From positions 14,968-78,967 of the forward strand of contig CAYTMM010000005.1 in NCBI GenBank assembly GCA_964438875.1: 64,000 nt of DNA. Reading direction: 5' to 3'. The translations under genes were made by a program, and so were the position numbers. The stretch is from an uncultured Sphingosinicella sp. Its GTDB lineage: Bacteria; Pseudomonadota; Alphaproteobacteria; Sphingomonadales; Sphingomonadaceae. Shown in pieces: positions 1,278 through 37,280 of this stretch; the first letter of the stretch is position 1; every line of letters starts with the position of its first letter. Under the pieces are notes generated by a model. That model saw only the letters and a program-made list of their open reading frames with translations. It was not told the origin of the DNA and did no database searches.

Positions 1278-1940
1278 CTATGCTCTGGGCTTCGGACCAC
1301 GTTTCCGGGGCTGAAGCTTGCGGCCGGTGCGCTGCTCGAGCGCCGCGAGCCATTGCGCGTTCCCGATCGGGCGCCCGGACGTTTCCGATTGCCGGAGCGC
1401 GCGCCATGCCTGCGCGTCGTCGGCGGACGCGCCCAGCAGGGCGGCGAAGTCGCCATAGCGCTCGCGCGCGGGCGCGACTTTCACCAGCTCGTCATCCGCG
1501 TTCGCCAGATGCGCGCGAACGCTGGACCATGGCCAGTCCTCGGCGCGATCGACCAGCCGCGCCCGGACCGGATTGAGCGAGACGTAGCGCATGGCGTGGA
1601 AGAGGTGCGTCTCGTCCATCACGACGGCGCCGAACCGGCCCTGCCACAGATGCCCGGTCCAGCGGTGTCGCGCGTTGATGAAGCCAGTGTAGCGCCGATG
1701 CGCGTCCGCGAAGGTGCGGCGCAGGCCATCCTCGTCCGCCGGCACGACGATGAGGTGGACATGATTGGGCATCAGGCAATAGCACCAGATCTCGCTGCCG
1801 GCGCGCTCGGCGGCCTCGGCGAGCAGATCCCGGTAGAGCGCGTAGTCGCCATCCTCGAAGAAGGTCCGCTCGCGCCGGTTGCCGCGCTGGGTCACGTGAT
1901 AGGGAAGACCGGGAAGAACCAAGCGATGCAGACGAACCAT
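1278..1940 (-). CDS. REP-associated tyrosine transposase (RAYT, Y1 HUH family)
   Basis: YHVTQRGNRR, YCLMPNHVHL (HUH motif), LWQGRF, YVSLNPVRA and WPWSS motifs. Confidence 0.9.
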   Translation of the reverse strand: MVRLHRLVLPGLPYHVTQRGNRRERTFFEDGDYALYRDLLAEAAERAGSEIWCYCLMPNHVHLIVVPADEDGLRRTFADAHRRYTGFINARHRWTGHLWQGRFGAVVMDETHLFHAMRYVSLNPVRARLVDRAEDWPWSSVRAHLANADDELVKVAPARERYGDFAALLGASADDAQAWRALRQSETSGRPIGNAQWLAALEQRTGRKLQPRKRGPKPRA

Positions 1941-1970: not shown

Positions 1971-2042
1971 GTGCACCGTCACCGTAATTCTACGCTGTAA
2001 GCTACACTAGCACCGTAATCTCATAATATCAACCGTAATCTC
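1971..2042. repeat. REP-like end GTGCACCGTCACCGTAATTC plus two further ACCGTAAT(C/T)TC-type copies
   Basis: ACCGTAAT occurs at 1981, 2012 and 2032, between the RAYT start and the immunity gene stop. Confidence 0.55.
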
Positions 2043-2475
2043 AAAATATATCTAAATCGTCAAATCTAGGATCATTAATTGTACTATTGAATTTATCCAA
2101 AATATCCTGAGGTAATTGAATGTCTTTTCTATTGTTTATGAAATTTAATGTAAAAATAAATTCATCATACCATTCATCAAAGAGATCTATATCAAGAAAA
2201 TATTCTAACGTGGGTAAATATCTATCCAAGTGGCCCCAATAGTCAATTGCAACTTTCATGCATTCCGCAGTCAAAGACGGAACCATGTTTATTATGTACT
2301 CATGACAAACTTCTAAAATATATTCATCTTCTTTGAACGAGTACCCATACATATAAATATACGATATTAACTTTGAAGAATCTTTTCTGTAGCGAATGAT
2401 TTGGCTTTTTAGCTCAGGCTCATCATTGATATCTAAGCCAGTGGAGCGAAATTTTTCCTCGATTGCTACTGACAT
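2041..2475 (-). CDS. Putative immunity protein for the Rhs toxin (144 aa, acidic)
   Basis: Very AT-rich ORF; its ATG (2475-2473) overlaps the last codons of the Rhs gene, the classic toxin-immunity coupling. No family recognised. Confidence 0.7.
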
Positions 2476-5400
2476 ATTCGAGATGCTCCCACACAATCTG
2501 TACGACCTATACGACGCAAAACTGATTCTGCTTCATTCAAAAGCCGTTGACCTCTCGCAGATGCCGACCGAAGCGAAGCTGCGCTTTCAGGGCTGAGATT
2601 TCCAGACCGAAGAAGCCTTTCCGATCTAATAAGATCACTTCTTAACGCTCGAGTGGCTTGGCGTACATCAGCGATGTGGTCGTATGGCCTGCCGTCGGGA
2701 CGTCTCGCAACCACCTCCCCCCGAGCTTCGCGTGCGGCAGCCTGATAGTGGCGACGGTTCAAGGTGTTGGCTCGACGGCCAATTCTATCCTCTAATTCGG
2801 GTGCGGGTATGTTTACATTTCGCCTCGGCTCGGGATCAAGTGGCGGGCCACCGTTATCGCTTCGAGACACGCTCCGATCAGAAGCTGGGATTTCGTTCCG
2901 TCCGGAATTATCCGACATAATCATCGCGCCGCCGGCGAGGATTACAAGACCCGAAACGATGAGATTTCCTGCAGCACAAGCCGGCGCGGCGGGACCGGTA
3001 AACGCGCAAAGTACGATTTCTGGTCCGTTGCCTGTGGAATCGACTAAGTTAATTGGATCATTGTTGACATAGGCATAGAGATTGATCCCACCTTCATATC
3101 CGACCGGATCAGTCTGCAGGAACCTTCCCAGGGTCGGCGAGTAGAGCCGCGCCTTGTAATGCCACATCCCGATCTCGGCGAGCCAGATTTGCCCGGTATA
3201 GCCGAACCGCCCCTGATTGGCGCTGTTGGGGATGCCCCACGCATCATAGGCATTGGTCGCGATCGACGTGCCGCCGGAGTCGGCAACCGCGACGATCGAG
3301 CCCTGATGATCACGGAACAGCGCGCGGCGGGTAGCGAGGTTGGCGCCTTCGTACCACAGCACCGGATCGTCATTGCCCAGCCCGTGGGCATAGCGGCGCA
3401 GCAAGGTGCCGGACGAGTTATACTCCGCGACCAGCTCGTCCCCATCGTACAGGAACCGCGTCGTGTTCCCGCCACTCACGACCTGGAACAGCCGGCCCAG
3501 CGGATCGTAGGTCAGAGTGGCGCTGCTGCCGCCCGTAGCCGACACTAGCCGGTTCTCCGCATCGTAGACGTAGTTGGTGGCCCCATCCGCCTTGAGGTTG
3601 CCGTTCGCGTCATAGGTGAACGACGCGCCACCGGCGGCGGTGTACTGGTTCAGCCCGTTCACCGTGTAGCTGCGCGTGACGTTGTACGCGGTGTCCGACG
3701 CATAGGCGTCATTGTCGCGCGTGCGCGTCACGATCTGGCTCGCCGGATTGTAGGCAAACGTCCAGGCGACGTCCCGGTTAGTCGCCGCCAAGTTGTGGCT
3801 GAGGCTGTTCAGCCGCGAGATCGCGTCATAGCCGAAGCTCGACGACGCGCCCGCATAGGTCTGCCCCGACGGCCGGGCCGCAGCATCATAGCTGAACGTC
3901 GCCACCGCCGTGCCGCCATTCTCGCGGATATCGGTGAGCTGCCCGTTCGCCGCCTGATCGTAGATGAAGTAGTTGCTGTCCGGGAACGTCAGCCGGGTAC
4001 GGCGGCTTCCCGCGTCGTGCTGGTAGGTCAGCGTCTGGCTCGTGCCGACCGTGTTGTTCGCCGATGACGCCAGTCGGCCGAACGCATCGTAGGTGTTGGT
4101 GATCCCCACTCCCGAGGTCGAGCCGAACCGCACGAACGTCTGCGCATTCCTGAGATCGTAGCCGTAATGGACCGTATAGGCCGCAGCACCGCTGGCCGAG
4201 GCCGGCACCGTCTTGGTGAGCATCCGGTTCAGATTGTCGTAGCTGTAGGTGATCGTCACCCCGTCGCGCTTGCGCAGGGTCAGGCGGTTGCCGACGGCGT
4301 CATATGTGTAGGCTTCGTAATCCGCCTCGTTCACCGAGCCGGCCGTGGTCAGATGCGGGAACACCCAGCGGATCAGCCGGTCATGCCCGTCATATCGCAG
4401 GTCCGCCCGGTTGCCGTTCGCGTCCGTCACCCGCGTGCGCTGGCCGTTCTGGCTGTAGAGATAGGTCGCATAGTCCTGCTGCAAGGATGTGCCGTAGGCC
4501 CGCTGCACCTTGAGGAGCTGGTTCGCCACGTCATAGGTGTTGCGCGTGATCCGGTCCGGACCCTGGCTCCCCTCCGTGCCCAAGGTGCAGGCGCTGCCGG
4601 GCAGCGAGGCGTAGATGGCCGGGTTCATCCGCTGCGTCTCGCACTCCAGCCGGTTGCGGTTATCGAATGTTCGCTGCACCAAGGTGTGCGTCGTGCTGCC
4701 CGAGATCGTCCGCTGCACGGCCGGGTTGCGCCGCGCGTCATAGGTGATCTCGGTGCGGCGGGTCTCCGACAGGGTGATGGAGGACTGAGGCGGAACGGTG
4801 GCGGGCACCGTCCCTTCCGCGGTCACGGTCGGCTTGTCGTCCGAGGCGCGGTAGGTGATCTGCCGCGCCGTGCGCACGCCGTTGGCGCCGACCGCGTCGA
4901 TCTCCCAGATCCGGCGGCCGTGCACGTCATAGTAGAAGTAGCGCGCGTCCGCGGTGCCGGCGAGCGGCCCGTCCTCGATCAGCACCCGCCCGGCCGTGTC
5001 ATAGGTATAGGTGGTCACCAGCTGCGTGCTGGTCGCCGGATCGACCTGGGCCACGGTCGCAGGCAGATTGGTGTTGTTCCAGTAAGTGTATTCGGTACGG
5101 ATCTCCTGGGTCGTTCCACAGGTGGTGGTGATCCCGCACACCCGCGTCACCGTGCGCCGGCTGAGCCCGGAGCTGACCGTATATTCGTGGATCGTGCGTC
5201 GGCGCACCCCATCTGCGTCGGCCGGGTCATCCTGCTGGGTCTGCTGGCCGGCGGCGTTGAACACATAGTCGGTCTGTCGACTCAGCCCGTCGCGCGACCA
5301 GACGGGGCGGTAGCAGGCAACGCTGTAGGTGGAGCAAGTATAGTGCGCGGTCTCCGTGATCGCGGCATCTCCAGAGCTGGGTTTCGCGGTCGCCGTGCGC

Positions 5401-6617
5401 GAGGTGACGTTGCCCGCCACGCCGTAGACCACGTCCACCCGGTTGCTCTCCGGATAGGTCGCCCGGTTCGGGCGGTAACTCAGATCATAGGTGTAACTGG
5501 TCTGCCGGCCGAGCGAATCGGTGACGCTGGAGACGACCCGGCGCGGGCCGCCGTCCAGCCCATTGACGTCCGTATAGGTGTAGACCTGATTGTAGCTGTT
5601 CGGCCCCGTCACGGTCAGCGCGTTCCAGATCCACGTCTTGTGCGTGGCGCTCCAGTGCAGGTTGGTATAGGCGTAGTTCCAGGTAACGCCGTCGCGCGTA
5701 ACCGAGCCGACCACGGGGCCGCCGGAGTGGGTCGTAACCTGGATGCTGTCCGTGCTCTCGCCGGGCAGCCGCAGCGAACCACTGGGGGTCTCCACCTCGC
5801 CGGCAAATTTGTTGGTACACCCGTTACAGGTGTATATTCGCCCGCCCAGATCCGTGATCGTCGTGCCATCCAGGCTGTAGGTGAGCTGGCCCAGCGGGGT
5901 CGAAGGCTCGGACGTGCGGTAGATCGTCGCCTGGGAGGGCGCGGCCCAGCCCGGGGTCCACATCGTGTTGGAATGGTAGGAGATGGTGATGTGGTAGCCG
6001 AGATTGCTGCTGATCGTGGTCGGCCGATGGTAGTTCACGCCCGAGTCCAGCGTGGTCGCATAGCTGTAGCTGATGACCTCGCCGGTCGGATAGACCACGG
6101 ACGACGCGTAATATTGGAGATACGTTATATCTCCCGACACGGTCTGATGCTGCAGTTGGTCGAACGTCCAGAACGCCCCCGTCCCCTCTTCCCGGAAGGT
6201 GAGCGCCCAGGGCGAGAAGCTGGAGCCGGTGCCCATGACGCTGGTGCAGACATCGTCGAAAGCGCACTGAAAGCTTTCGGAAGTTCCGCGGCCGGTGTGG
6301 ATCGCAAAATTGCCTTCTGAGTAGCTTCCGAACGGGCTTATCCGTTGCCCATTCACATAAGGCGCCATGTTCAGCACCCGGTCGAACCGCAGATTGGGCG
6401 CGCCCGGCACTGACAAGGTCGGTATCGGAAGTTGGGTCTTGCCGGTGATGAGGTTGACCCCATTCTGGTCCTCCTCGACCCGCAAAGGCGAGATCACCTG
6501 GGGCGGATCCTGCGCCAAAGCCGGCGCGCCGCACAGCATAAGGGCGATCATGCCCAAGATAAGCCGCAGGACAAACCCGCGACCCGCCGCGACCCGGGCA
6601 ATCGCACCAGATACCAT
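2466..6617 (-). CDS. Rhs/YD-repeat polymorphic toxin with Sec signal peptide and Ntox28-like C-terminal toxin domain
   Basis: Many YD repeats; Rhs core [33 protein letters not shown]; hydrophobic segment after the core; tip [19 protein letters not shown]; N-terminal [19 protein letters not shown] signal. Start placed after a GGGG RBS. Confidence 0.9.
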
Positions 6618-6703
6618 TCCATCCCCCTTGGACGTCGTCACGCTAAGATCGGTGAACAACGGCATCGCCTCGCCGAGCCCGGCGCCAAGCTGCGGCCGGG
6701 CCA

Positions 6704-7252
6704 TCACCAGCAGTCTCCAGGCAGGATGTAGACGCCCAATATACCGTGCGACGTCGCCCCCAAACTGTCCTGGACGATGTAGGTGACCTGGACCCCGCCG
6801 GGCGTCGCACCAGCCGTGAACCGCACATTGGTCGATGATTCCGCATAGGCCGATCCGTAGGCCGGAACGATGCTATGGATGCCGACCAGGGACAGCGGAT
6901 AATTTCCTTCCGGATCGGTGTCGTTTGCGACCACGTTGACCGAGATGCTGGTGCATACATCCATCGACCCGCCATCGTCCGAATTTGCCACCGGGGGCTG
7001 ATTAGGCGGCGGCGGAGGTGGCGTGCCGCCCCCACCGCCAGCACCATCCACCACATAAGAGGAACGATTTCCGGCGGCATCGTAGGAGACCGCCGTCACG
7101 ATCCCATCATTGACCGTGCCGCTGCTGCTGGTCGCCACCAACCGCCCGAGCGCATCGTAAGTGTAGGTAACCGTCTCGCTGGCAATGCCTGCGCCATGGA
7201 GGCCGAGGGCACCCGCTGCCACACCGAGCAGATAGGCGATCTTCTTGTTCAT
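6704..7252 (-). CDS. Small secreted YD-repeat protein with Gly/Pro linker and Ig/cadherin-like C-terminal domain
   Basis: Signal peptide, YTYDALGRL...[26 protein letters not shown] linker, [11 protein letters not shown] and YIVQDSLGA motifs. Confidence 0.75.
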
Positions 7253-7593
7253 TCGTCCCCCCGTGTAAAAATAGCGAATGCCGCCCCTAAAGGCGCGACA
7301 CAGCCCCGTATTTCTACTGTATGTCCACTATGATTTAAGCAATCAGGTCACGATTCACCCACATTATCGAGTCGAAACCTCTATATGGGGAACAATGGAA
7401 TCAACTTCTGTCAAGTGATCTTGTGGTTGTTACAAAATCATATCCAATCAATAAATTGCTGCGCTGCATCATTTCTGGTTCGTTATGGATGTTTCTGCTC
7501 TGTAGATTCCAGATATCCAATATTTACCTTGGCAATGCGCGTCCAACCCCACATTATCCTGGATCGAATCGTCGCCAGTAACGAGGTGGGTCG

Positions 7594-7914
7594 GTGCATC
7601 GATTGGGTGGCATAGGCGCGTGGGCCGCCATATGGCTGGTCACACTTTCATGGTCTGTGCCGGGGCGCACTGCCTATTCCGACCCCGCCGGCTCGGGCGT
7701 CATCGTCTCCGCCGTGCGCTGGCTGGAGGGCACCCTGCTCGGCACGATCGCGACCGTCGTGGCGGTCATCGCGGTCGCCTCAGTCGGCCTCCTCATGCTC
7801 ACCGGCCGGATCAACTGGCGCTATGGCGCGACCGTGATCCTGGGCTGCTTCATCCTGTTCGGCGCCGCCAGCATCGTCGCCGGCATCCAGTCCACCGCGA
7901 GCCTTGGCAGGTGA
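7594..7914 (+). CDS. virB2: TrbC/VirB2 family pilin
   Basis: WLEGTLLGTIATVVAVIAVASVGLLMLTGRINWR...ILGCFILFGA; first gene of the virB operon. Confidence 0.85.
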   Translation: MHRLGGIGAWAAIWLVTLSWSVPGRTAYSDPAGSGVIVSAVRWLEGTLLGTIATVVAVIAVASVGLLMLTGRINWRYGATVILGCFILFGAASIVAGIQSTASLGR

Positions 7915-7918
7915 TGGC

Positions 7919-8203
7919 GTGAACGGCCTCGAACGCGATACCCTGTTCGTCGCCCTGACCCGCCCGCAGATGTTCGCCGGCGTCACCTACTCCTATTTCA
8001 TCTTCAATCTGGTGCTGGCGACCGAGGGGTTCCTCATTTTCAAGTCAGTCTGGGTGCTGGTGCTGGCGGTGGTCGTCCATCTCGTCGGCATGCTCTTGTG
8101 CCTGCGCGAGCCGCGCTTCTTCGACCTGTGGCTGACCCGTGTCAGCCGCTGTCCCAGGGTCCGCAACCATGCGATCTGGCGGTGCAACTCCTACCGGCCC
8201 TGA
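7919..8203 (+). CDS. virB3: VirB3 family protein
   Basis: LFVALTRPQMFAGV and REPRFFDLW motifs. GTG start at 7919 is inferred. Confidence 0.88.
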   Translation: MNGLERDTLFVALTRPQMFAGVTYSYFIFNLVLATEGFLIFKSVWVLVLAVVVHLVGMLLCLREPRFFDLWLTRVSRCPRVRNHAIWRCNSYRP

Positions 8204-10557
8204 CCCGCGACCCCGCCGTTATCGCACGCGAACGGCCGGCCGGGCATCACCTTCCCTATGCGCATCATGTCGACGATCACACGGTCGCGACCAAAGACGG
8301 CCTGCTCCTGCAGTTCATCCAGCTGCGCGGCCTGCTGTTCGAGACCGCCGATACGGACGAGCTCAACTATAGGAAGCGCCTGCGCGATGCGATGCTGCAG
8401 GCGGTGGGATCCTCAAGGTTCGCGCTCTGCCATCATATCGTCCGGCGCCGGATCGATGCCGAGCTTTCGTCGGACTATCCCGATCCGTTCTCACGGCAGC
8501 TCGGCCAGAGCTGGAGCGACCGGCTCGCCACCCGCCAGCTCTATGTCAATGACCTCTTCCTCACCCTCATCCGCCGGCCATTGCCCGGCAAGCTCGGCGG
8601 GCTCGACCGCCTGCGCGCGTTCCTCGGCCGCGCCACCGGTCATGACGATGAGGCGCATGTCTCAGCGGAGCTGCGCCAGCTCGACGCGGCCCGCGATGCG
8701 CTGATCGCGTCGCTCGGCAGCTATGCCCCGCGCCTGCTCGGGGTCTACAAGACCCGTCAGGGTCATTGTTCCGAACCACTGGAGTTCCTCTCCAGCCTCT
8801 ACAATGGTGAGCTGCGCCCCGTATTGCTGCCCGAGCAGGATCTGGGCGCCTATCTCCCCTATCGGCGGATCAGTTTCGGGCAGGAGGCCATCGAGCTCGG
8901 CCGGGCCGGGGCATCACCACGTGCGTTCGTCGGGCTGGTCTCGATCAAGGATTATCCCGGCCAGACCGCGCCCGGCATGCTGGACGAGCTCTTACGCCTG
9001 CCGTTCGAGCTCAACGTCTCGCAAAGTTTCGCCTTTGTCGAACGGCAGGCGGCGCTTTCGCGGATGAACCTGGCGCTGCGGCGCATGCGCTCGGCCGAGG
9101 ACGAGGCGTTGAGCCTGCGCGCCGATCTTACCCATGCCAAGGACGATGTCGCGGCCGGACGCGCGGGGTTCGGCGAGCATCACATGACCATCGCGATCCG
9201 GTCGGACACGCCGCAGGGCGTCGATGACGGTGTGGCCGAAGCGCAGGCCGTGCTCTCAGATCTCGGCATCCTGTCGGTCCGCGAGGAGATCGCGCTGGAG
9301 CCGGCCTTCTGGGCGCAGTTCCCCGGCAACTTCAAATATATCGCGCGGCGCGGCCTCGTCTCGACCAGCAATTTCGCGAGCCTGGCGAGCGGGCATAATT
9401 TCCCGCAAGGGCTGGCCGACGGCAACCATTGGGGCGAGGCGGTCACCCTGCTGGAGACCACGGCGGCAGGGCCTTATTATTTCAATTTCCATCAGGGCGA
9501 TCTGGGCAACTTCACGATTATCGGCCCGTCGGGATCGGGCAAGACCGTAGTGCTCAACTTCCTCCTCGCCCAGGCCCGCAAATACCGTCCCCGCATCATC
9601 TTCTTCGACAAGGATCGCGGTGCCGAGCTCTTCATCCGCGCGATCGGCGGGCGCTATGACCGGCTCCATGCCGGCGCGCCTTCCGGGCTCAACCCACTCC
9701 AGCTGCCGGACAGCGCGCAAAATCGTGAGTTCCTGATCGACTGGCTGGGCCTGCTGGCCGGCGATCCCAGCATCGAAGAGGTCGGGCAGATCAAGGATGC
9801 GATCGACGCGAGCTTTGAACAGCCTCTCGAGCATCGCCGCCTGCGCCATCTGGTCGAGCTGTTCCGCGGCGGGCATCGCCCCCATGCGGGCGATCTCTGG
9901 TCGCGGCTGCGCCCCTGGTGGGGCGAGGGCGAGCGGGCCTGGCTGTTCGACAATGCGACAGACCGGACCGATCTCGATGCAGACGCGATCGGGTTCGACA
10001 TGACCCAGATCCTCGACCATCCGACCTTACGCACGCCCGCCATGATGTATCTGTTCCACCGGGTGGAGGAGCGGCTCGACGGGTCGCCCGCGATCATCGT
10101 GGTGGACGAAGGCTGGAAGGCGCTCGACGACGAGGTGTTCGTGCGCCGGATCAAGGACTGGGAGAAGACGATCCGCAAGCGCAACGGGATCGTCGGGTTC
10201 GCGACCCAGAGCGCGCAGGATGCGCTGGAGAGCCGGATCGCCAGCGCGATCATCGAACAGGCCGCGACCCAGATATTCATGGCGAACCCCAAAGCGCGCG
10301 CTGCCGACTATATGGACGGGTTCGGGCTGACCCAACACGAATATGATCTGGTGCGCACCCTTCCCGACAGCGCGCATTGCTTTCTCATCAAGCATGGCGC
10401 GGAGAGCGTGGTCGCACGGCTCGACCTCTCCAGCGAGCGCGACCTGCTCACCATCTTGTCGGGACGCGAACGCACGGTGCGGCTGCTCGACGAGATCCGC
10501 GCCGCCAATGGCGACGATCCCGCCGACTGGATCCCCCGGTTGCTGGAGGTCGCATGA
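8182..10557 (+). CDS. virB4: VirB4 ATPase
   Basis: Walker A GPSGSGKT, FDKDRG, Walker B IIVVDEGW, RKRNG...FATQS. GTG start overlapping virB3 is inferred. Confidence 0.95.
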   Translation: MQLLPALTRDPAVIARERPAGHHLPYAHHVDDHTVATKDGLLLQFIQLRGLLFETADTDELNYRKRLRDAMLQAVGSSRFALCHHIVRRRIDAELSSDYPDPFSRQLGQSWSDRLATRQLYVNDLFLTLIRRPLPGKLGGLDRLRAFLGRATGHDDEAHVSAELRQLDAARDALIASLGSYAPRLLGVYKTRQGHCSEPLEFLSSLYNGELRPVLLPEQDLGAYLPYRRISFGQEAIELGRAGASPRAFVGLVSIKDYPGQTAPGMLDELLRLPFELNVSQSFAFVERQAALSRMNLALRRMRSAEDEALSLRADLTHAKDDVAAGRAGFGEHHMTIAIRSDTPQGVDDGVAEAQAVLSDLGILSVREEIALEPAFWAQFPGNFKYIARRGLVSTSNFASLASGHNFPQGLADGNHWGEAVTLLETTAAGPYYFNFHQGDLGNFTIIGPSGSGKTVVLNFLLAQARKYRPRIIFFDKDRGAELFIRAIGGRYDRLHAGAPSGLNPLQLPDSAQNREFLIDWLGLLAGDPSIEEVGQIKDAIDASFEQPLEHRRLRHLVELFRGGHRPHAGDLWSRLRPWWGEGERAWLFDNATDRTDLDADAIGFDMTQILDHPTLRTPAMMYLFHRVEERLDGSPAIIVVDEGWKALDDEVFVRRIKDWEKTIRKRNGIVGFATQSAQDALESRIASAIIEQAATQIFMANPKARAADYMDGFGLTQHEYDLVRTLPDSAHCFLIKHGAESVVARLDLSSERDLLTILSGRERTVRLLDEIRAANGDDPADWIPRLLEVA

Positions 10558-11765
10558 TCGCCATGCCCTGCCAAGCTCCGCCGGGCGGCGGGTTCGTGAG
10601 CGGCGTGCTGGGGTTCGTCGACTGCCAGGCGCAGGCCATCGGCATGGGCGGATATCAGGCGCTGGCCGCGCCCGGCTCGGCGCTCTCGCTGGGCTTGAGC
10701 ATCCTGCTCACCTTGTTCATCGCGCTTTACGGCTACCGGTTGCTGCTCGGTGAGCGGCTGGGCCTGCGCGACAGCGTGCTCGCCATGATCAAGATCGGCA
10801 TCGTGTTCACGCTGGCGCTGAGTTGGCCGGCCTATCGCACGCTCATCTACGACGTGACATTGCGCGCGCCCGCAGAGATCGCCTCGGATATCGGCCGGCC
10901 TGCCGGTCTGCCGGGATCGGGCGGTGGGCTCGTCCAGCGGCTCGACCAGGCCGATCTTTTCTATGTGAGCCTCAACATGATGGGCACCGGCGCCGGACCA
11001 GTATCGCCCACCGCCACCTTGCAGGCCGATGTGGGTCGCCCCCAAAACGCATCCACGTTCGACCCGCTGGCGCTGGGCGGCGCGCGCGTGTTCTTCCTCA
11101 CCAGCGCGCTGGGTGCCTTTGCGGGCATGCGGCTGATCGCCGGGCTGATGCTGGCGCTGGGGCCGTTGTTCATCGCGTTCCTGCTGTTCCAGTCCACCCG
11201 CGGCCTGTTCGAGGGCTGGATCCGGGTGCTGGCCGGCGCCGCCTTGGGCGCACTGGGCACCGCCATCGTGCTGGGCGTGCAGCTGGCGCTGATCGAGCCC
11301 CGGCTGGCCGACCTGGTCGCCTGGCGCGGTGCGGGCTACGCGATCCCCGGCGCGCCGGTCGAGCTGCTGGTGATCAGCCTGACGTTCGCGCTGATCAACC
11401 TCGCCGTGCTCATCGCCGCCTGGCGGCTGACCGGCGCGTTCGCGTTCCCGGCGATCTGGCGCTCGACCCTGTCGCAGGTCGCGAGCACTATCGGCAGCCG
11501 GAGCGAGCGCGAACCGCTGCTGCGCACCAGCCCGGCAAGCGAGGCGGTGGAGCGTTCCCGCGCCGCCGCCATCGCCGACAGTGTTGCCACATTGCAGCGC
11601 CGGGAGAGTGCGGGTGGCCCTGACCTCGGCGCGCCCCAGCGTAGCACGCAGCCCCGTGCCGACAGATCGGACGCGCCATCCGCTCGCACCCAGCCGCTCG
11701 GCCAAAGCGGACGACGCACGCGCGGCCGGACATCGGCGAGCAGCGCGCGAAGGGATAGCCGATGA
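10554..11765 (+). CDS. virB6: VirB6/TrbL family polytopic membrane protein with hydrophilic C-terminal extension
   Basis: Multiple TM segments, LGPLFIAFLLFQSTRGLFEGW motif; ATGA overlap with virB4. Confidence 0.88.
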   Translation: MIAMPCQAPPGGGFVSGVLGFVDCQAQAIGMGGYQALAAPGSALSLGLSILLTLFIALYGYRLLLGERLGLRDSVLAMIKIGIVFTLALSWPAYRTLIYDVTLRAPAEIASDIGRPAGLPGSGGGLVQRLDQADLFYVSLNMMGTGAGPVSPTATLQADVGRPQNASTFDPLALGGARVFFLTSALGAFAGMRLIAGLMLALGPLFIAFLLFQSTRGLFEGWIRVLAGAALGALGTAIVLGVQLALIEPRLADLVAWRGAGYAIPGAPVELLVISLTFALINLAVLIAAWRLTGAFAFPAIWRSTLSQVASTIGSRSEREPLLRTSPASEAVERSRAAAIADSVATLQRRESAGGPDLGAPQRSTQPRADRSDAPSARTQPLGQSGRRTRGRTSASSARRDSR

Positions 11766-12517
11766 ACAAGCAGTCCCGCGAGGCACTCGACGCTTATTAT
11801 CGCGAGGCGGCAAGCTGGGGCCGCGACCGCGAAGATACGCTGAGGGCCTCGCGCCGGATCGCCTGGATCGTCGCCGGCATTGCGCTGCTGGTCGCGGTGT
11901 TGCTGGCGATCGCCCTGGTGGTGCTGATGCCGCTGAAACGGGTCGAGCCCTATACGATCCTGGTCGATCGCCAGACCGGGTTCGTGCAGGCGGTCGATCC
12001 GCTGCATCCCCAGCGGATCAGCGGCGATGCGGCGCTCACCCAGAGCTTCCTCGTCCAATATGTGATCGCGCGCGAAGGGTTCGACATCGCCGCGCTCCAG
12101 AGCAACTATCGCAAGGTCGCACTCTGGTCGGCCGAGAGCGCGCGCAGCTCCTATCTGGCGGGCATCCAGAACAGCAATCCGCAAAGTCCCCTCAACCTCT
12201 ACCCGCGCACCACCACGCTGGACGTGCGGGTGAAGAGCGTCTCGCCAGTCGCGGCCAATGTGGCGATGGTGCGGTTCGAGATCGTGCGCCGCGACATGAG
12301 CGGGCAGGCGCAGCCGGCCCAGCCGTTCGTCTCGATGATCCGCTATCATTATGCCGGCGAGCCGATGAGCGTCGAGGATAGGTTCATCAACCCCTTGGGG
12401 TTCCAGGTGCTGCGCTATCGGCGCGATCAGGAGGCATTGCCGGCGAATGCGGAAGAAGCGCCTGCACAGCCGCAGACCGCACCCCCGCCATCCGATCCCG
12501 CCGGGGTCAGGCAATGA
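11762..12517 (+). CDS. virB8: VirB8 family protein
   Basis: Single TM, PLKRVEPY, YVIAREG and NPLGFQVLRYR motifs. Confidence 0.92.
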   Translation: MNKQSREALDAYYREAASWGRDREDTLRASRRIAWIVAGIALLVAVLLAIALVVLMPLKRVEPYTILVDRQTGFVQAVDPLHPQRISGDAALTQSFLVQYVIAREGFDIAALQSNYRKVALWSAESARSSYLAGIQNSNPQSPLNLYPRTTTLDVRVKSVSPVAANVAMVRFEIVRRDMSGQAQPAQPFVSMIRYHYAGEPMSVEDRFINPLGFQVLRYRRDQEALPANAEEAPAQPQTAPPPSDPAGVRQ

Positions 12518-13209
12518 GGTCGCTCCTCCCCCTCCTGCTGCTCGGCGCCACTGTGCCGGCATTGGCGCAGATCGATCCGCGCCCTGGCGGCAGCGACCCA
12601 CGCATCCAAGTGATCGACTATCAAGACGACCAGGTGTTCCGCGTCCAGGCGGCACCGGGCTATCAGGTGACCCTGCAGCTCGGCCCCGACGAGCGGATCG
12701 AAAATGTCGCGGTCGGCGATGCCGGTGCCTGGCAGGTCGCCGCCAACGCTCGCGGCGATCTCCTGTTCGTCAAACCCTTGCGCGAAGGGGTGACCACCAA
12801 TCTCACCGTCGCCACGGACATCCGGCTTTACACGTTCGAGCTCGCCCCGCTTTACGACGGCGCGCCCAACATGGCCTACCGGATCCGGTTCAACTATCCC
12901 GCCGAGGCCGATGAGCGGCAAGAGCCCGAACAGGTCGCCGCGCTGGGTGATGGCCGCTACCGGCTGAGCGGCGCCCGTGCGCTGCGCCCCGCCGCGATCA
13001 GCGACGATGGCATGCGCACCTATATCGAATGGCCCGAAGACGCCGCATTGCCGGCGGTGTTCACGATCGACGCGCAGGGCCGTGAGGCTCTGGTCAACGG
13101 CAATATGCGTGGGCGGCTCTATGTGATCGATAGTGTGCCAGGCCGCCTGCTGTTCCGGATCGATCGCGGCGTCGCGCGCGCCGTGCGCATCACGCCGAGC
13201 GACTCCTGA
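12514..13209 (+). CDS. virB9: TrbG/VirB9 family protein
   Basis: Signal peptide, DPRIQVIDY, LFVKP, DDGMRTYIEWP and LPAVF motifs. Confidence 0.92.
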   Translation: MRSLLPLLLLGATVPALAQIDPRPGGSDPRIQVIDYQDDQVFRVQAAPGYQVTLQLGPDERIENVAVGDAGAWQVAANARGDLLFVKPLREGVTTNLTVATDIRLYTFELAPLYDGAPNMAYRIRFNYPAEADERQEPEQVAALGDGRYRLSGARALRPAAISDDGMRTYIEWPEDAALPAVFTIDAQGREALVNGNMRGRLYVIDSVPGRLLFRIDRGVARAVRITPSDS

Positions 13210-14324
13210 TGGCAGCGCGCGGCCAAGGCGGCGATCCGCGCCGCACGCTCCCCGAGATCGAGGAAGGCGATGTGCGTCCGGTGGTCGCCATGGGACGCGG
13301 CGGGGTGCCGACCTGGGCGCTGGTCGGGATCGCGGTGCTGATCGGGCTCATGCTGTTCGCTGTGCTGGATGCCCGGCGCCGTGCCGGGCAGGAGCCGGCC
13401 GAACCGGTCCGCGCCGATGCGTTCGCATTGCCGGCCCCGCCTCCACCATTGGTGCTTCCGCCACCGGCGGCGCCCATGATCGCACCGCCGGTAGTGGCGG
13501 AGGCGCCGGTTGCTGTGCCGCCGCCCGCCGCTGCGCCCGTGCCGGCGCCGCAAATGGTCTATGTGCCGCAGCCCGCGCCGATGTCGCAGCAGATGGAGGC
13601 GCCGCCGCCTCCGCCGCGGGTGTTGGCCGAGCCGGCCTTGGTGCTCGATATCAGCGGGACGCGGCGAAGTGCTGGCGCCCCGCCTGCTGAAGATGGCGGG
13701 GTGGTCAATGCCGCCCCGCCATCGACAGGATCATCGGTATCCGGAAGTCGCGCCCGTGCCGGCAGCCTCGCCAACCGCACCACCACCGTGCCGCAGGGCA
13801 CGCTGATCCCCGCCGTGCTGGAAAGCGCCCTGGACTCGACCCGGCCTGGGCTCGCGCGCGCCATCGTCTCGCGCGACGTGCGCGGATTCGACGGGACGCG
13901 CATCTTGATCCCGCGCGGCAGCCGCCTGATCGGTGAATATGCCTCCGAAGTGCAGCCCGGCCAGCGCCGCGCTCTGGTCAACTGGATCCGGCTGATCCGT
14001 CCCGACGGGGTGACGATCGAGATTGGTTCGCCGTCGGCCGATCCGGTCGGCCGCACCGGCATGCGTGCGCGGGTCAACAACCACTTCTTCGAGCGGTTCG
14101 CGGGCGCATTCCTGCAATCCGCCCTCAACCTGGGCGTGAACCTCGCCGCCTCGGAAGCCGGCAATGGCGCGGTGGTGATCCTGCCGGGCACACTCCAGAA
14201 CGGCGCGAGCCAGGCGATCCAGCCCCAGCAGATCACCCCGACGCTCTCGGTGCGGCAGGGCACCAGCATCAGCATCTTCGTCGCCCGCGATCTCGACTTT
14301 ACCGGCGCGGATGCGAGGCGGTGA
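13209..14324 (+). CDS. virB10: TrbI/VirB10 family protein
   Basis: TM plus Pro-rich linker; GTLIPAVLESALDS, LIPRGSRLIGEY, VNNHFFERF and IFVARDLDF motifs. Confidence 0.93.
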   Translation: MAARGQGGDPRRTLPEIEEGDVRPVVAMGRGGVPTWALVGIAVLIGLMLFAVLDARRRAGQEPAEPVRADAFALPAPPPPLVLPPPAAPMIAPPVVAEAPVAVPPPAAAPVPAPQMVYVPQPAPMSQQMEAPPPPPRVLAEPALVLDISGTRRSAGAPPAEDGGVVNAAPPSTGSSVSGSRARAGSLANRTTTVPQGTLIPAVLESALDSTRPGLARAIVSRDVRGFDGTRILIPRGSRLIGEYASEVQPGQRRALVNWIRLIRPDGVTIEIGSPSADPVGRTGMRARVNNHFFERFAGAFLQSALNLGVNLAASEAGNGAVVILPGTLQNGASQAIQPQQITPTLSVRQGTSISIFVARDLDFTGADARR

Positions 14325-15307
14325 GCGCGGCTGCCACGGCTCCGGTTTACCTCAGCGCCTATCTGGCGCCGCTGGGCGACCTGCTCGAACGTCCCGACAT
14401 CACCGACATCTATATCAACGCGCCGCGCGAGGTATGGATCGAGACCATCAAGGGCGAGGTCGAGCGGCTGGAGGTGCCGGCGCTGGATGCGGCGATGCTT
14501 AGCCGGCTGGCGCGCCAGATCGCGGCGATATCGCATCAGGGGATCAGCCGGGAACACCCGCTGCTGTCCGCGACCCTGCCGGACGGCGGGCGCGTGCAGA
14601 TCGTGATCCCGCCCGCCACGCGCGGACATCTGGCGCTGGCGATCCGCAAGCATATCGCGCCGGAGCTGTCACTGGAGGATTATGTGGCGGCGGGTGCGTT
14701 CGACGAGACCCGGCGCGGGGAGCTTGGCACCGACGATGAGGGCAAGCGGCAGATCGCCGCCTTGCTCGCCGCTGGTGACATGGCGGGCGCGATGCGGCTT
14801 GCCGTACGCCAGCGGCGCAACATCCTGGTGTCCGGGGGTACATCGACCGGCAAGACGACGTTCCTCAATGCGCTGCTGCGCGAGGTGCCGGCCGAGGTAC
14901 GGCTGATCCTGATCGAGGACACGCCGGAGCTGAAGGCGCCCCACGCCAATATGGTGGGGCTGCTGGCGGCGCGCTCGGCATTGGGCGAGGCGCAGGTGAG
15001 TGCGGACGATCTGGTGGCGGCAAGCCTGCGCATGCGACCCGACCGGATCATCCTGGGCGAGTTGCGCGGCCCCGAGGCGTTCGCGTTCCTGCGCGCGGTC
15101 AATACCGGCCACCCCGGCTCGATGACCACGGTCCATGCCGATAGCGCAAGCCGAGCGATCGAGCAGATCGTGTTGCTGGTGCTCCAGGCCGGCACCCAGC
15201 TCAGCCGGGACGATGTGCGTCACTATGTGCGCTCGACCATCGATCTCTACGTGCAGCTGACTCGCGAGGGTGGGCGGCGGCGGGTGGCGGAGGTGATCTG
15301 CCCGTGA
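14321..15307 (+). CDS. virB11: VirB11 traffic ATPase
   Basis: Walker A GGTSTGKTT, IEDTPEL, LRMRPDRIILGELRG and NTGHPGSMTTVHA motifs. Confidence 0.95.
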   Translation: MSAAATAPVYLSAYLAPLGDLLERPDITDIYINAPREVWIETIKGEVERLEVPALDAAMLSRLARQIAAISHQGISREHPLLSATLPDGGRVQIVIPPATRGHLALAIRKHIAPELSLEDYVAAGAFDETRRGELGTDDEGKRQIAALLAAGDMAGAMRLAVRQRRNILVSGGTSTGKTTFLNALLREVPAEVRLILIEDTPELKAPHANMVGLLAARSALGEAQVSADDLVAASLRMRPDRIILGELRGPEAFAFLRAVNTGHPGSMTTVHADSASRAIEQIVLLVLQAGTQLSRDDVRHYVRSTIDLYVQLTREGGRRRVAEVICP

Positions 15308-15678
15308 TGGGGGCTGCGCCGATGCTCGCCGATCCGGGCGGGTCCAGCAGCCTGGTCGCAGCTTTGACCTGGGTGCAGGGGACGTTGCTGGGCACGGTCG
15401 CGACATTGGTGGCGGTGATCGCCATTGCGTCGATCGGGCTGCTGATGCTCGCCGGGCGCGTGGATGTGCGGCACGGCGTGCGGATGGTGCTAGGATGCTT
15501 CATCCTGTTCGGGGCGGCCACGATCGCGGCCGGGATACAGGCGGGGTTTACGGTGGGGATAGGATCGTCGCGGCCGGTGATGGCTGAGGCACCCGAGGCA
15601 TCACCGCCACCGGCTCTGCCCGAGATGCCACCCGCCAATTACGATCCCTATGCCGGGGCATCGGTGCCGATACGGTGA
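15304..15678 (+). CDS. virB2: Second TrbC/VirB2 family pilin with Pro-rich C-terminal tail
   Basis: WVQGTLLGTVATLVAVIAIASIGLLMLAGR...LGCFILFGA, a paralogue of 7594-7914; tail PEASPPPALPEMPPANYDPYAGASVPIR. Confidence 0.8.
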   Translation: MMGAAPMLADPGGSSSLVAALTWVQGTLLGTVATLVAVIAIASIGLLMLAGRVDVRHGVRMVLGCFILFGAATIAAGIQAGFTVGIGSSRPVMAEAPEASPPPALPEMPPANYDPYAGASVPIR

Positions 15679-16127
15679 TTTGAAAAGCACGATAACAGGG
15701 CTGCAAGACGGGCGTATAGCGGATTTGCGCCCATAGCGGCCGTCTAGCGCCGGATCTGCCAATCGCGAGAGCTGACGTCCACCGGGCACACGCGATTGAC
15801 CGACATGCGCCCATCCCGGTCGCCACCATCGCCGACTCTGGCGTCCGCTTCGCGGTTCATGCTGGACCTTCAGGCCAGCCGACGGCTTCAACAACGGCAG
15901 ACATTTCAAACTGCAGGACCGTCAATCGAGATGAGTCCGAGCTCCAAGCTATGTTGCTTCTGAACTCGCCTTACCCCGCCGTTAATTAGTAGTACGGAAA
16001 CACCTGATCTCACTCTTGCCCGTCAATTGACACTTTGCATTGTCAAGGTACTTGTGGAAGCATGTTCTATCCGAGCTGGAGTGGGAGACTTCGGGCGTTC
16101 GGCAACGTGGGGACCGGAACATTGACT

Positions 16128-17768
16128 GTGAAGAAGCCTGCGAGCGTCGGCAGTGTGTCGGTGAGGCTCATTCGGGCCGATAAGACGGTCGACACCGCCA
16201 TTCGGTCCGAGAACAAATTTCATGAGGTGCCATCTGAATCCGGCCACCTGTTTGTGGGTCAAAGTCCAAGCAACCCGCCGCCATGGACGAGCTTCGTCAG
16301 GGAGGCGGCCGGCACGACCGCAGACGTCGAGCTGCAAAACAAGAGCTGCGGCGCCATCCTCTTCCTCACGGCCGAGCGAGCAGGACGACCCGACCGCATC
16401 TTTGCGTTCACTTTCGGTACGGGGCATCTGGCGCTAGATCCCGATGCGATTGAGCGCGGATTCGGCCTCAAGGTAACATTGAACAAGGTGGAGCGGTCCA
16501 AGCTGAGGACGCTGGATGTGGCGAGCCTCGATGCCACCGTCATCCAGCGGCGGACCCAGGCGAGTCGAGATATCGACATCGACGAGTTCGGGATGAACAA
16601 GCATCAGGATCTACTGCGTCTCGCGGCTGGCACGCCCGATGACACGGGCCTGGCGCGCACATTGAGCGGACGCGACTCCCTAACCTTGAACCGGCGCTAT
16701 TCTGCGGCTGAGCTTCAGGCGCTTTGCGAGCGGTTGCTGGCCCTCTACGAGGGCAAGGAATATCAGAAGCACTATAAGTTCATCGACAATGTTCGGCCTG
16801 TCCAGGATAGGCTGCTGCTCTCGGAGCTCGACGGCCTCGCATTTGCGGAAATCAACGCGCTCATCAGCGGCCAAACGTCCGACCTGCATCTGTCACTGCC
16901 GGAGATCCTTGATCCATCGCGCAGCCTAGAGGTCAGCTATTTTGGTGCCACGCTCAAGCCAGGCCGCAAGAGCGTCTATCCGGATATCGACATTGCCGAT
17001 TATGTCGAGGTGCTGAGGCTCGGCAAGTTTGCCGACCTCACGCTCGATGCATGGCGCGCCACTCACGAAATCCGTTTCAGCGAAGCCGGCGAGACGGACC
17101 GGGAAAAGCAGCACAGGATCCACAATTGCATCGTCTGGGAGGCGGTCCACAACGGCATCACCTATGTCGCTTTCGGCGGCGAGTGGTTTGCAATTGATAA
17201 GCTCTTCTACGAGGAGATCGAGGAGGATTTCCAACGGCTGATTACAGCCACGCCGGTGGTCGCCTCGACGGCGGCCAAAAATGAGCAGGAGCTGCTAGTA
17301 GAGCTCGACGCGAGGCCTGACCTCCTGCTGATGGACAAAACTAAGACCAATCCGAAGGGCGCGCCGCGGGCCAATATCGAATTTTGCGACTTTCTCGGCT
17401 TTGACCGTAAACTCATCCATCTCAAGGATGGCCATGCCTCCACTTCGATCAGTCACCTCTGGAGTCAGGGCGTGGTCGGTAGCGAGAGCTTCCTCCGCGA
17501 CGAAGGATTCAGGCGGCATCTACTCAAGCATGTCCGCTCCCGCCAGAGGGACGCCAAGAAGTCGGGCTTCGATAGACTGCTGCCGACGCCGGCCAAGCGT
17601 CCAACGACGCGGGATTTCACCGTCGCCTATGGCATCATGCGGACGCCACTGAAGCGGTCCGGCAAGCTCGACATTCCCTTCTTCAGCAAGGTTAGCCTGC
17701 GGGCGGCCGCGCAGCGACTCGAGGATCTGGGGTTCAACGTTGAAATCCAATTGATCAAGATGACGTGA
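16128..17768 (+). CDS. TIGR04141/DUF6119-like sporadically distributed protein with C-terminal PD-(D/E)xK-like region
   Basis: FAFTFGTGH...IERGFGLKVTLN N-terminal motif; IEFCDF...LIHLK...SISHLWSQG...PFFSKVSL C-terminal motif. Start uncertain (16035-16128). Confidence 0.75.
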   Translation: MKKPASVGSVSVRLIRADKTVDTAIRSENKFHEVPSESGHLFVGQSPSNPPPWTSFVREAAGTTADVELQNKSCGAILFLTAERAGRPDRIFAFTFGTGHLALDPDAIERGFGLKVTLNKVERSKLRTLDVASLDATVIQRRTQASRDIDIDEFGMNKHQDLLRLAAGTPDDTGLARTLSGRDSLTLNRRYSAAELQALCERLLALYEGKEYQKHYKFIDNVRPVQDRLLLSELDGLAFAEINALISGQTSDLHLSLPEILDPSRSLEVSYFGATLKPGRKSVYPDIDIADYVEVLRLGKFADLTLDAWRATHEIRFSEAGETDREKQHRIHNCIVWEAVHNGITYVAFGGEWFAIDKLFYEEIEEDFQRLITATPVVASTAAKNEQELLVELDARPDLLLMDKTKTNPKGAPRANIEFCDFLGFDRKLIHLKDGHASTSISHLWSQGVVGSESFLRDEGFRRHLLKHVRSRQRDAKKSGFDRLLPTPAKRPTTRDFTVAYGIMRTPLKRSGKLDIPFFSKVSLRAAAQRLEDLGFNVEIQLIKMT

Positions 17769-36103: not shown

Positions 36104-36317
36104 TTTTATCAGAGACTGGTTCGGGCAGGACTGCGTCGCGCACCACTCTTCCTAAAATATTGATATTATTCTATAATATGCGCTTGCGGCCGTAATTCTC
36201 CCCCGTATTCCGGAGCTTTGCGGGAGGTGGTTACGAAGGTGAGGCGAGAAGCGCCTCTCATTCCGACATGACCGGCGCGATATGAGTCCCCGTCTCAGTA
36301 GGCCTCTATTCCAGACC

Positions 36318-37280
36318 TCACATTGTGGGCTGCAGTGCCCCGGCGCGGCTCAGCCGATCCCCAAGACCGATCGGTGCGTCACACTGCTCGATGGCGATGC
36401 CCAGCCGGCGCAGCAGTGCGGCCAGGTCGATCGCGATCGTGATCCTGTCGTCATGGAGCTGGACCTGATTGACCAACGCGGTGACGATGCTGCGCTTGCC
36501 ATAGGGCGTGTCGAGATGCTCGGCGGACCCAAATGCCCGCGAGATAGCCATGGCGATAGAGGTGGCATCCGTTGCATGTTCACTGACCACATCGTGGATT
36601 CTACGCTTGTCGAGCAGCATCTCGCGGATACGCTCGACGATGAGCGACTCAAGATCATAAGCCGGCACCCGGGCCGCGGGTGGCTCGCCGTCGCGCAGTT
36701 CGGATGCATGGGTGATGTAATAGCGATAGCGCTTGCCCGACTTCATCGCATGGCTGGGCGACATGCGCCGGCCGTGTGCATCGTGAATGATTCCGGCGAG
36801 CAGGCTGGCATGCGCGGCATTGCTACGCGTGCGTCGTTCCACCCGGTTCGCGGCGATGATGGTCTGCGCCGCCTCCCATAGCCCGAGATCGACGATTGGC
36901 TGATGCTCACCGGGATGGGCAACACCCTTATGAACGATCTCGGCATCGGCTTCGTTGACCACCAGCTTGCGGTCCCGGACATAATAGCCGAGCGGCACGG
37001 GGCCGCCCATCCACATGCCCTTCTGCTTGGATGCCGCGATTTTGTCACGGATGCGCTCGCCGGTGATCTCGCGCTCGAACTGGGCGAAGGACAGGAGCAC
37101 GTTGAGGATCAGCCTGCCCATGCTGGTCGTGGTGTTGAACGACTGGGTGACACTGACGAAGCTGGCCTTGCGCCCATCCAGGATTTCCACGATCTTCGCG
37201 AAGTCCGACAGGCTGCGGGTGAGACGATCCACCTTGTAGACGACGATCACATCGACCTTGCCGGCTTCGACATCGGCGAG
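36318..37280 (-). pseudogene. Large serine recombinase relic (N-terminus and central recombinase domain deleted)
   Basis: Begins at LADVEAGKVDVIVVYKVDRLTRS with no catalytic N-terminus; ...NEADAEIV joins directly to HKGVAHPGEHQPIVD; aberrant C-terminus. Confidence 0.85.

Follow-up and report, generated by a model that had tools for sequence, protein, structure and literature searches.

The 64,000-nucleotide stretch of DNA analyzed here (the window) lies on contig C5 of the genome of an uncultured Sphingosinicella sp. (G000) and codes for a P-type type IV secretion system (T4SS) that lacks a coupling protein, placed next to a divergent gene for an Rhs polymorphic toxin with a Sec-type signal peptide. 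The T4SS-Rhs association is real and spans the Sphingomonadales and Caulobacterales, where dozens of species of sphingomonads and of Brevundimonas have the pairing. A functional link between this T4SS clade and Rhs is likely, and the two possibly form a secretion module resembling the Ptl system of Bordetella, a mechanism that we advance tentatively. No account of T4SS-linked Rhs toxins emerged from a full-text search of the literature.

Relatives of the operon were collected with one genome per species, giving 80 loci with 72 to 82% identical VirB4 proteins from Sphingomonas, Allosphingosinicella, Sphingomicrobium, Stakelama, Novosphingopyxis, Blastomonas, and Brevundimonas; gene maps of the relatives come from a simple GC3-based open reading frame (ORF) picker and the positions of small genes are approximate. 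An Rhs gene is present within the 10-kb flanks of 24 of the 81 species-level loci, with gaps of 0.4 to 3.5 kb between Rhs and operon. The linked genes are arranged variously: 11 are upstream and codirectional, seven upstream and divergent (as in the window), four downstream and convergent, and two downstream and codirectional, and several loci have one Rhs gene on each side of the operon. A broader family sample has 401 evenly drawn genomes, of which ∼70 carry the clade (VirB4 identity of at least 60%), and adjacency there is defined as an Rhs match within 10 kb on the same contig, with coordinates compared by hand. About 36 of 73 VirB4-clade loci in this sample, from at least 25 genera, have an adjacent Rhs gene, where the chance expectation is ∼1% or less, and one genome (G189) carries two T4SS copies, each with its own Rhs gene. 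Rhs homologues are present in 44 of the 70 genomes with the clade versus 40 of the 331 without it (odds ratio, 12); the naive P value of 7e-18 is overstated because the sampled relatives are not independent. In a Caulobacteraceae sample, all five loci with at least 68% VirB4 identity, plus one at 64%, have Rhs within 7 kb, and no Rhs adjacency is seen for the lower VirB4 tiers. Co-occurrence of this virB clade with Sec-signal Rhs genes, which the earlier sequence-only reading had set beforehand as its test, is strongly positive, at about half of the loci and in two orders.

The association is specific in several respects. A second and commoner chromosomal VirB4 tier occurs in both sampled families, in well over 100 genomes each, with 52 to 59% identity overall and 54 to 57% in the 401-genome sample, and it has no Rhs adjacency in either the family or the Caulobacteraceae sample; two genera holding only this related tier have Rhs in none of 12 genomes. 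The VirB4 tree largely tracks taxonomy. All of its basal clades show Rhs adjacency, as do 7 of the 62 proteins in a large crown clade, a distribution that requires at least eight changes. A second virB2 gene follows virB11 at 12 of 20 Rhs-linked loci versus 4 of 42 unlinked ones, and it appears that the extra pilin gene and Rhs are retained or lost as a pair. Among the cargo of the island that carries the window operon, only Rhs and its small YD-repeat companion turn up again next to the operon in relatives; DUF6119, MBL, DUF4238, and E2/E1/JAB genes do so in none of the 80. Because the association is clade-specific, tight at the level of gene neighbors, repeated in two orders, and unshared by other cargo, a functional link is the likely reading.

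The T4SS operon is on the plus strand and contains nine genes, virB2-3-4-6-8-9-10-11-virB2, identified by ORF listing and profile searches of the window with Pfam and NCBIfam, in which all matches cited exceed the family cutoffs. Every junction overlaps by a few bases, so the operon is translationally coupled. It is preceded by a sigma-70-like promoter found by consensus scan (TTGGCA-17 nt-CATTAT; 7529 to 7557, plus strand), and an identical −35/−10 pair occupies the same position upstream of virB2 in 56 of the 80 related loci. A search for a regulatory motif shared across loci yielded only this conserved promoter. The first pilin gene, virB2a (7594 to 7914), is a paralogue of the PF04956-positive second pilin gene and has 68 to 96% identity to its counterparts in all relatives (tblastn); two other ORFs at this end of the operon (7385 to 7615 and 7620 to 7922) were rejected as genes in favor of this frame. 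It is followed by virB3 (7904 to 8203; PF05101, 3.3e-27, with a match to NF010474) and the ATPase gene virB4, with a maximal ORF of 8098 to 10557 and a true start probably near 8200 (PF03135, 1.3e-42; TIGR00929, 2.3e-227). VirB4 matches TrwK of R388 (4.9e-150) and has the Walker A motif GPSGSGKT.

The remaining operon genes are virB6 (10551 to 11765; PF04610, 3.3e-22), with a start at ∼10551 inferred from the translation and an Arg/Ser-rich C-terminal tail of ∼100 amino acids (aa); virB8 (11762 to 12517; PF04335, 8.4e-53); virB9 (12514 to 13209; PF03524, 2.9e-49, with a match to TIGR02781), whose product has a signal peptide; virB10 (13209 to 14324; PF03743, 7.1e-48, with a match to NF038091), which scores 1e-54 as VirB10 versus 1.2e-20 as ComB10; the ATPase gene virB11 (14321 to 15307; PF00437, 4.1e-34; TIGR02788, 9.9e-107); and the second pilin gene, virB2b (15304 to 15678; PF04956, 2.3e-12), whose product has a Pro-rich tail. 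The sequence-only reading had described just this overlapping gene set, with its second virB2, and the profile searches bear it out. With VirB4 together with VirB2, -B3, -B6, -B8, -B9, -B10, and -B11, the operon codes for the core of a P-type (VirB/Trw, MPF-T) T4SS. The closest solved structures to VirB8 are those of Bartonella VirB8 and R388 TrwG; together with R388 TrwK, the nearest solved relative for VirB4, they mark this as an ordinary P-type machine.

The Rhs gene is on the minus strand (2466 to 6617) and codes for a 1,383-aa protein counted from the signal-peptide methionine, with matches to RHS_repeat (1.7e-21) and the Rhs_assc_core family TIGR03696. It has the makeup of an Rhs polymorphic toxin: a Sec-type signal peptide of ∼35 aa (encoded by 6513 to 6617), a YD shell, an Rhs core with its cleavage motif, and a variable C-terminal tip of ∼210 aa, together with an adjacent candidate immunity ORF. 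The tip contains an Ntox28 domain (encoded at ∼2637 to 2789; Pfam, 5.9e-16). An AlphaFold model of residues 1 to 430 (mean pLDDT, 74) has a disordered signal peptide followed by an all-beta fold, for which Foldseek finds matches among the shells of type VI secretion system (T6SS) Rhs proteins, teneurins, and Tc BC complexes. An outer membrane barrel or adaptor domain at the N terminus was considered and rejected, as the model is an Rhs shell from about residue 50. With the shell fold directly after the signal peptide, the protein is an Rhs without any other trafficking device, and it contains no PAAR, VgrG, or barrel domain. Neither TssC nor PAAR was found in G000, an assembly of 167 contigs that is 95% complete, so that absences from this genome alone are provisional; the earlier statement that T6SS markers are missing is nonetheless sustained, and with an N terminus made up of signal peptide and shell, the protein does not have the features of a T6SS-dependent Rhs effector. 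A type II secretion system (T2SS) with GspD and GspL is present in G000 on contig C65.

Upstream of Rhs, and the first gene of the same unit, is a gene for a secreted 182-aa protein with YD repeats and an Ig-like domain (6704 to 7252, minus strand; Big_9, 6.2e-11; RHS_repeat, 8.5e-07). Its homologues adjoin Rhs genes in ∼10 relatives and at one locus lacking a T4SS. The signal peptides of both proteins were called by eye from their n-h-c regions, and both end in AxA. The candidate immunity gene (2041 to 2475, minus strand) overlaps the Rhs stop codon and codes for an acidic 144-aa protein that has no Pfam match and no signal peptide; it lies in a region of low G+C content (0.536 at 2001 to 4000, against ∼0.66 around it). 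The divergent arrangement of a signal-peptide YD protein and a 1,383-aa Rhs toxin followed by immunity, as previously proposed, thus holds, with the immunity assignment made by position only. An IS200/Y1-transposase-like gene (1278 to 1940, minus strand) lies between this ORF and the recombinase module at the island end, and similar copies adjoin the T4SS at one related locus (L068).

The window Rhs protein and those of ∼20 relatives have signal peptides. At the N terminus of nearly all Rhs homologues is a Sec-type signal peptide with AxAQ at its end, followed by a conserved D-x-N-G-V-D-L motif, and this start is common to T4SS-linked and unlinked Rhs proteins alike. The C-terminal tips are hypervariable: among 26 homologues no pair of tips matches with an E value below 1e-3, and none of the 10 tips taken from T4SS-linked relatives has a Pfam match. 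The tips are mutually unrelated, as in interbacterial polymorphic toxins, and these proteins are classical polymorphic antibacterial toxins.

No VirD4 was found in the window or the island, and the only VirD4 of G000 is at positions 20023 to 21372 of contig C26, where it and the only relaxase of the genome (C26:28620) adjoin a TrbE-type VirB4; the Trb-type cluster on C26 thus includes both TraG/VirD4 and the relaxase. TrwC and MobA/MobL relaxases were not found in G000. Contig C5 has no PF07996 (VirB5) match, and the only VirB5-like match in G000 is a weak one on contig C30, beside a VirB4 fragment. There is no VirB7-like lipobox ORF in the operon in any frame, although very divergent small proteins could escape such a search. 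No accessory VirB1, VirB5, or VirB7 is therefore assigned, and the operon has no leftover ORF. The sequence-only reading had virB1, virB5, virB7, virD4, and a relaxase all absent from the window, which the profile and lipobox searches bear out for the operon. Among relatives, no VirD4-like gene occurs in the 10-kb flanks of any of the 81 species-level loci, and 17 of 25 closed or nearly closed T4SS-carrying genomes have no match to PF02534 (VirD4) anywhere, nor do two Brevundimonas carriers. A relaxase adjoins the operon in just one of the 80 relatives, with a fragment in a second. The former is a MobA/MobL-type protein with an N-terminal AIYHFSAKVISR motif, encoded just downstream of the T4SS in a Brevundimonas genome (L081:17314 to 19710, minus strand); a 976-aa gene related to it is near a T4SS-less Rhs gene at another locus (L093). 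The 17 of 25 genomes without VirD4, the rarity of nearby relaxases, and the conserved promoter together make a conjugative role unlikely.

Bordetella Ptl lacks VirD4 and VirB5 and exports pertussis toxin from the periplasm after its translocation by Sec. By analogy, the coupling-protein-less P-type T4SS and the Rhs toxins might tentatively be regarded as one module, in which Sec export would be followed by a Ptl-like outer membrane step, or a hand-over to the target cell, carried out by the T4SS. Sec would move Rhs and its small YD partner into the periplasm, as their conserved signal peptides suggest. The Rhs cocoon, with the toxin tip enclosed, may then cross the outer membrane through a channel of VirB2, -B6, -B8, -B9, and -B10 or, alternatively, be displayed on the surface or passed to a neighboring cell; this step would be powered by VirB4 and VirB11. 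A cytoplasmic immunity protein would shield sibling cells. Export of Rhs from the periplasm by the T4SS, as the sequence-only reading proposed, is the best single mechanism among those considered, and it is something that we infer from this analogy. A fuller version, in which the clade loads from the periplasm as Ptl does and delivers Rhs cocoons or their tips into neighboring bacteria as the Xanthomonadales X-T4SS and the T6SS do, is rather unlikely.

Several observations weigh against this mechanism. The known outer membrane pores of T4SSs are much narrower than a folded Rhs cocoon of ∼150 kDa. VirB7 stabilizes the outer membrane complex in known systems, and we count the lack of any equivalent in the operon as a point on the same side. 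The co-occurrence counts are drawn from related, nonindependent genomes. Each partner also persists alone. Full-length signal-peptide Rhs genes are present without any VirB4-family match in five genomes (G184 and G312, both closed, and G263, G041, and G279), and on the Rhs tree the proteins of VirB4-less genomes nest among T4SS-adjacent ones; the window Rhs and that of locus L076 are sister to the G184 and G263 proteins (support, 100/99). Since Rhs is intact in VirB4-less genomes, this Rhs lineage is not strictly T4SS dependent. Conversely, ∼26 of the 70 T4SS carriers have no Rhs homologue at all and the large crown VirB4 clade has lost Rhs adjacency, and a T4SS kept without Rhs must have another role or other substrates. 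It is because each partner persists alone and the cocoon is large that we hold the mechanism as tentative. The claim of the sequence-only reading that the T4SS is a dedicated Rhs exporter is weakened by the Rhs-less T4SS carriers and the VirB4-less Rhs genomes, and its companion claim, that this is not a conjugation system, is strengthened by the 17 of 25 genomes without VirD4.

An indirect link, which we regard as somewhat doubtful, would have the T4SS act as a contact pilus or in DNA uptake and be coselected with Rhs; contact, or DNA from killed neighbors, would make the pair useful, and Rhs would exit by vesicles, lysis, a T2SS, or some other system. Bartonella Trw builds a pilus or contact structure and ComB takes up DNA, and such a role fits the absence of VirD4, the kinship to Bartonella VirB8 and R388 Trw proteins, and the two pilin genes, the second of which tracks Rhs adjacency; the persistence of each partner alone likewise fits a facultative partnership. 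However, the operon has the VirB11 that ComB lacks and shows none of the VirB5 amplification of Trw, and upstream codirectional linkage at 0.4 to 3.5 kb resembles an operon-level pair of substrate and machine. Nor does any alternative exporter correlate with Rhs. Rhs is present in 18 of 24 genomes (75%) with both T4SS and T2SS, 26 of 46 (57%) with the T4SS only, 23 of 148 (16%) with the T2SS only, and 17 of 183 (9%) with neither. With a nonsignificant T2SS odds ratio of 1.35 and 17 Rhs-positive genomes having neither system, a rule by which Rhs would depend on one of the two, a T2SS or this T4SS, is rejected family-wide; complementarity of the two appeared only in a small set of closed genomes. 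The 26 Rhs-positive T4SS carriers in the second group have no GspD-type T2SS, and the T4SS-less Rhs loci have no conserved partners beyond small secreted proteins.

It is improbable that the two have no functional connection and simply travel on the same mobile islands or lie at a shared recombination hot spot, with Rhs/immunity pairs perhaps serving as addiction modules that stabilize the islands. Such co-carriage is consistent with the location of the G000 pair in a 37.9-kb tRNA-Thr island with a serine recombinase and unrelated cargo, the absence of both elements from the closest congener (G238), the patchy presence within genera, and the status of Rhs genes as known recombination hot spots. 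It fits poorly with the recurrence of only Rhs and YD beside the operon where other cargo varies from locus to locus, with a recombinase module shared by just 3 of 80 relatives, with a VirB4 tree that mostly follows taxonomy and has Rhs adjacency in all basal clades, and with the lack of Rhs adjacency in the related T4SS tier of lower identity. Much the least probable is a decaying or trans-dependent conjugation system that borrows VirD4 and a relaxase, for example from the Trb-type element on C26. The single VirD4 and single relaxase on that contig, and the MobA/MobL relaxase beside the operon at L081, would be compatible with such borrowing, but 17 of 25 closed T4SS genomes have no VirD4 to borrow, the operon is intact with VirB4 72 to 82% identical across genera, and the promoter upstream of it is conserved.

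The likeness to Ptl rests on gene content and order: virB2-3-4-6-8-9-10-11 without VirD4 or VirB5, with Sec-signal candidate substrate genes adjoining the operon and, in 11 relatives, lying upstream and codirectional as in ptx-ptl. The two differ in that the window operon has a second pilin gene and no equivalent found of VirB7 (PtlI), the place of an AB5 toxin is taken, as candidate cargo, by an Rhs cocoon of ∼150 kDa that has polymorphic antibacterial tips and immunity genes, the window type of machine also occurs without the candidate cargo, and the nearest solved relatives of its proteins are from Bartonella and R388. The X-T4SS is likewise a chromosomal P-type T4SS tied to antibacterial toxin/immunity pairs, but there VirD4 recruits cytoplasmic effectors by way of their C-terminal XVIPCD domain; the window system has no VirD4 and its toxins have an N-terminal Sec signal and an Rhs shell (no search was made for XVIPCD). 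Bartonella Trw and Brucella VirB share with the window system the lack of VirD4 and a duplicated pilin gene, and the window VirB8 and VirB4 are closest to the Bartonella/R388 Trw lineage. However, in Trw VirB5 is amplified and VirB11 is missing, Brucella VirB has VirB1, VirB5, VirB7, and VirB12, and neither is linked to Rhs toxins. ComB lacks both VirD4 and VirB11, and the presence of VirB11 sets the window operon apart from it.

On the toxin side, the window protein shares a Rhs/YD shell fold, a core cleavage motif, hypervariable toxins, and adjacent immunity with T6SS Rhs, Tc BC, and WapA proteins. Rhs toxins in diderm bacteria are known to travel by T6SS or as Tc complexes, and the window Rhs differs from these in having no PAAR or VgrG, no T6SS found in its genome, and no TcA partner. 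It resembles the WapA proteins of Gram-positive bacteria in appearing Sec dependent but, unlike them, still needs an outer membrane step because its host is diderm.

The pairing bears on how Rhs proteins equipped with a signal peptide alone cross the outer membrane and on the role of chromosomal T4SSs that lack a coupling protein, and because it occurs in culturable and harmless bacteria of soil and plants, both can be tested directly. Carriers include Sphingomonas panni DSM 15761 and Sphingomonas sp. JC676, with GB1N7, PB2P12, and Brevundimonas isolates as further candidates. A reference survey of polymorphic toxins reports that type III secretion systems and T4SSs are seemingly not used by them (PMC3482391). 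If Rhs were exported by the T4SS, this statement would be overturned, and classical polymorphic toxins would have their first known trafficking route that depends on a T4SS. It would also generalize the Ptl mechanism beyond one pathogen, as a second and widespread two-step form of type IV secretion, and would represent a new interbacterial weapon in abundant plant-associated Alphaproteobacteria.

The T4SS/Rhs unit is located within an island of ∼37.9 kb directly after a tRNA-Thr(CGT) gene (C5:13200 to 13275; ARAGORN). An exact-repeat search identifies a 16-bp AT-rich direct repeat whose left copy is just after the tRNA (C5:13287, 1.7 kb before the window) and whose right copy is at 36157 to 36172 of the window. 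The left end codes for a large serine recombinase accompanied by DUF2924 and DUF3489 (C5:13477 to 15150), a module found in 3 of the 80 relatives, and a resolvase fragment (36318 to 37250) is just outside the right end. Directly downstream of virB2b is a gene for a 577-aa DUF6119 protein (16035 to 17768, plus strand; E value, 3e-129), and the other cargo includes an MBL gene with an E2/E1/JAB system, an autotransporter, a MerR gene with a TonB receptor, and a ParB-methylase. As closest congener G238 has neither T4SS nor Rhs, the pair arrived together in G000. An empty integration site was sought in congeners and not found; their synteny with G000 ends at the tRNA-Thr gene, and the downstream sequence differs in every relative.

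Some related loci have distinctive genes of other kinds next to the T4SS. At several Rhs-less Sphingomonas and Stakelama loci (L055, L061, L065, L066, L069, and L021), virB2 is preceded by tandem genes for ∼190-aa proteins with phage tail collar domains, and the same loci also hold sulfotransferase-like and Asn-synthase/PqqD (lasso-peptide-like) genes. Two metagenome-assembled genomes have a gene for a ∼1,900-aa bacterial alpha-2-macroglobulin directly upstream of the T4SS (L022:2796 to 8519 and L028:3120 to 8870).

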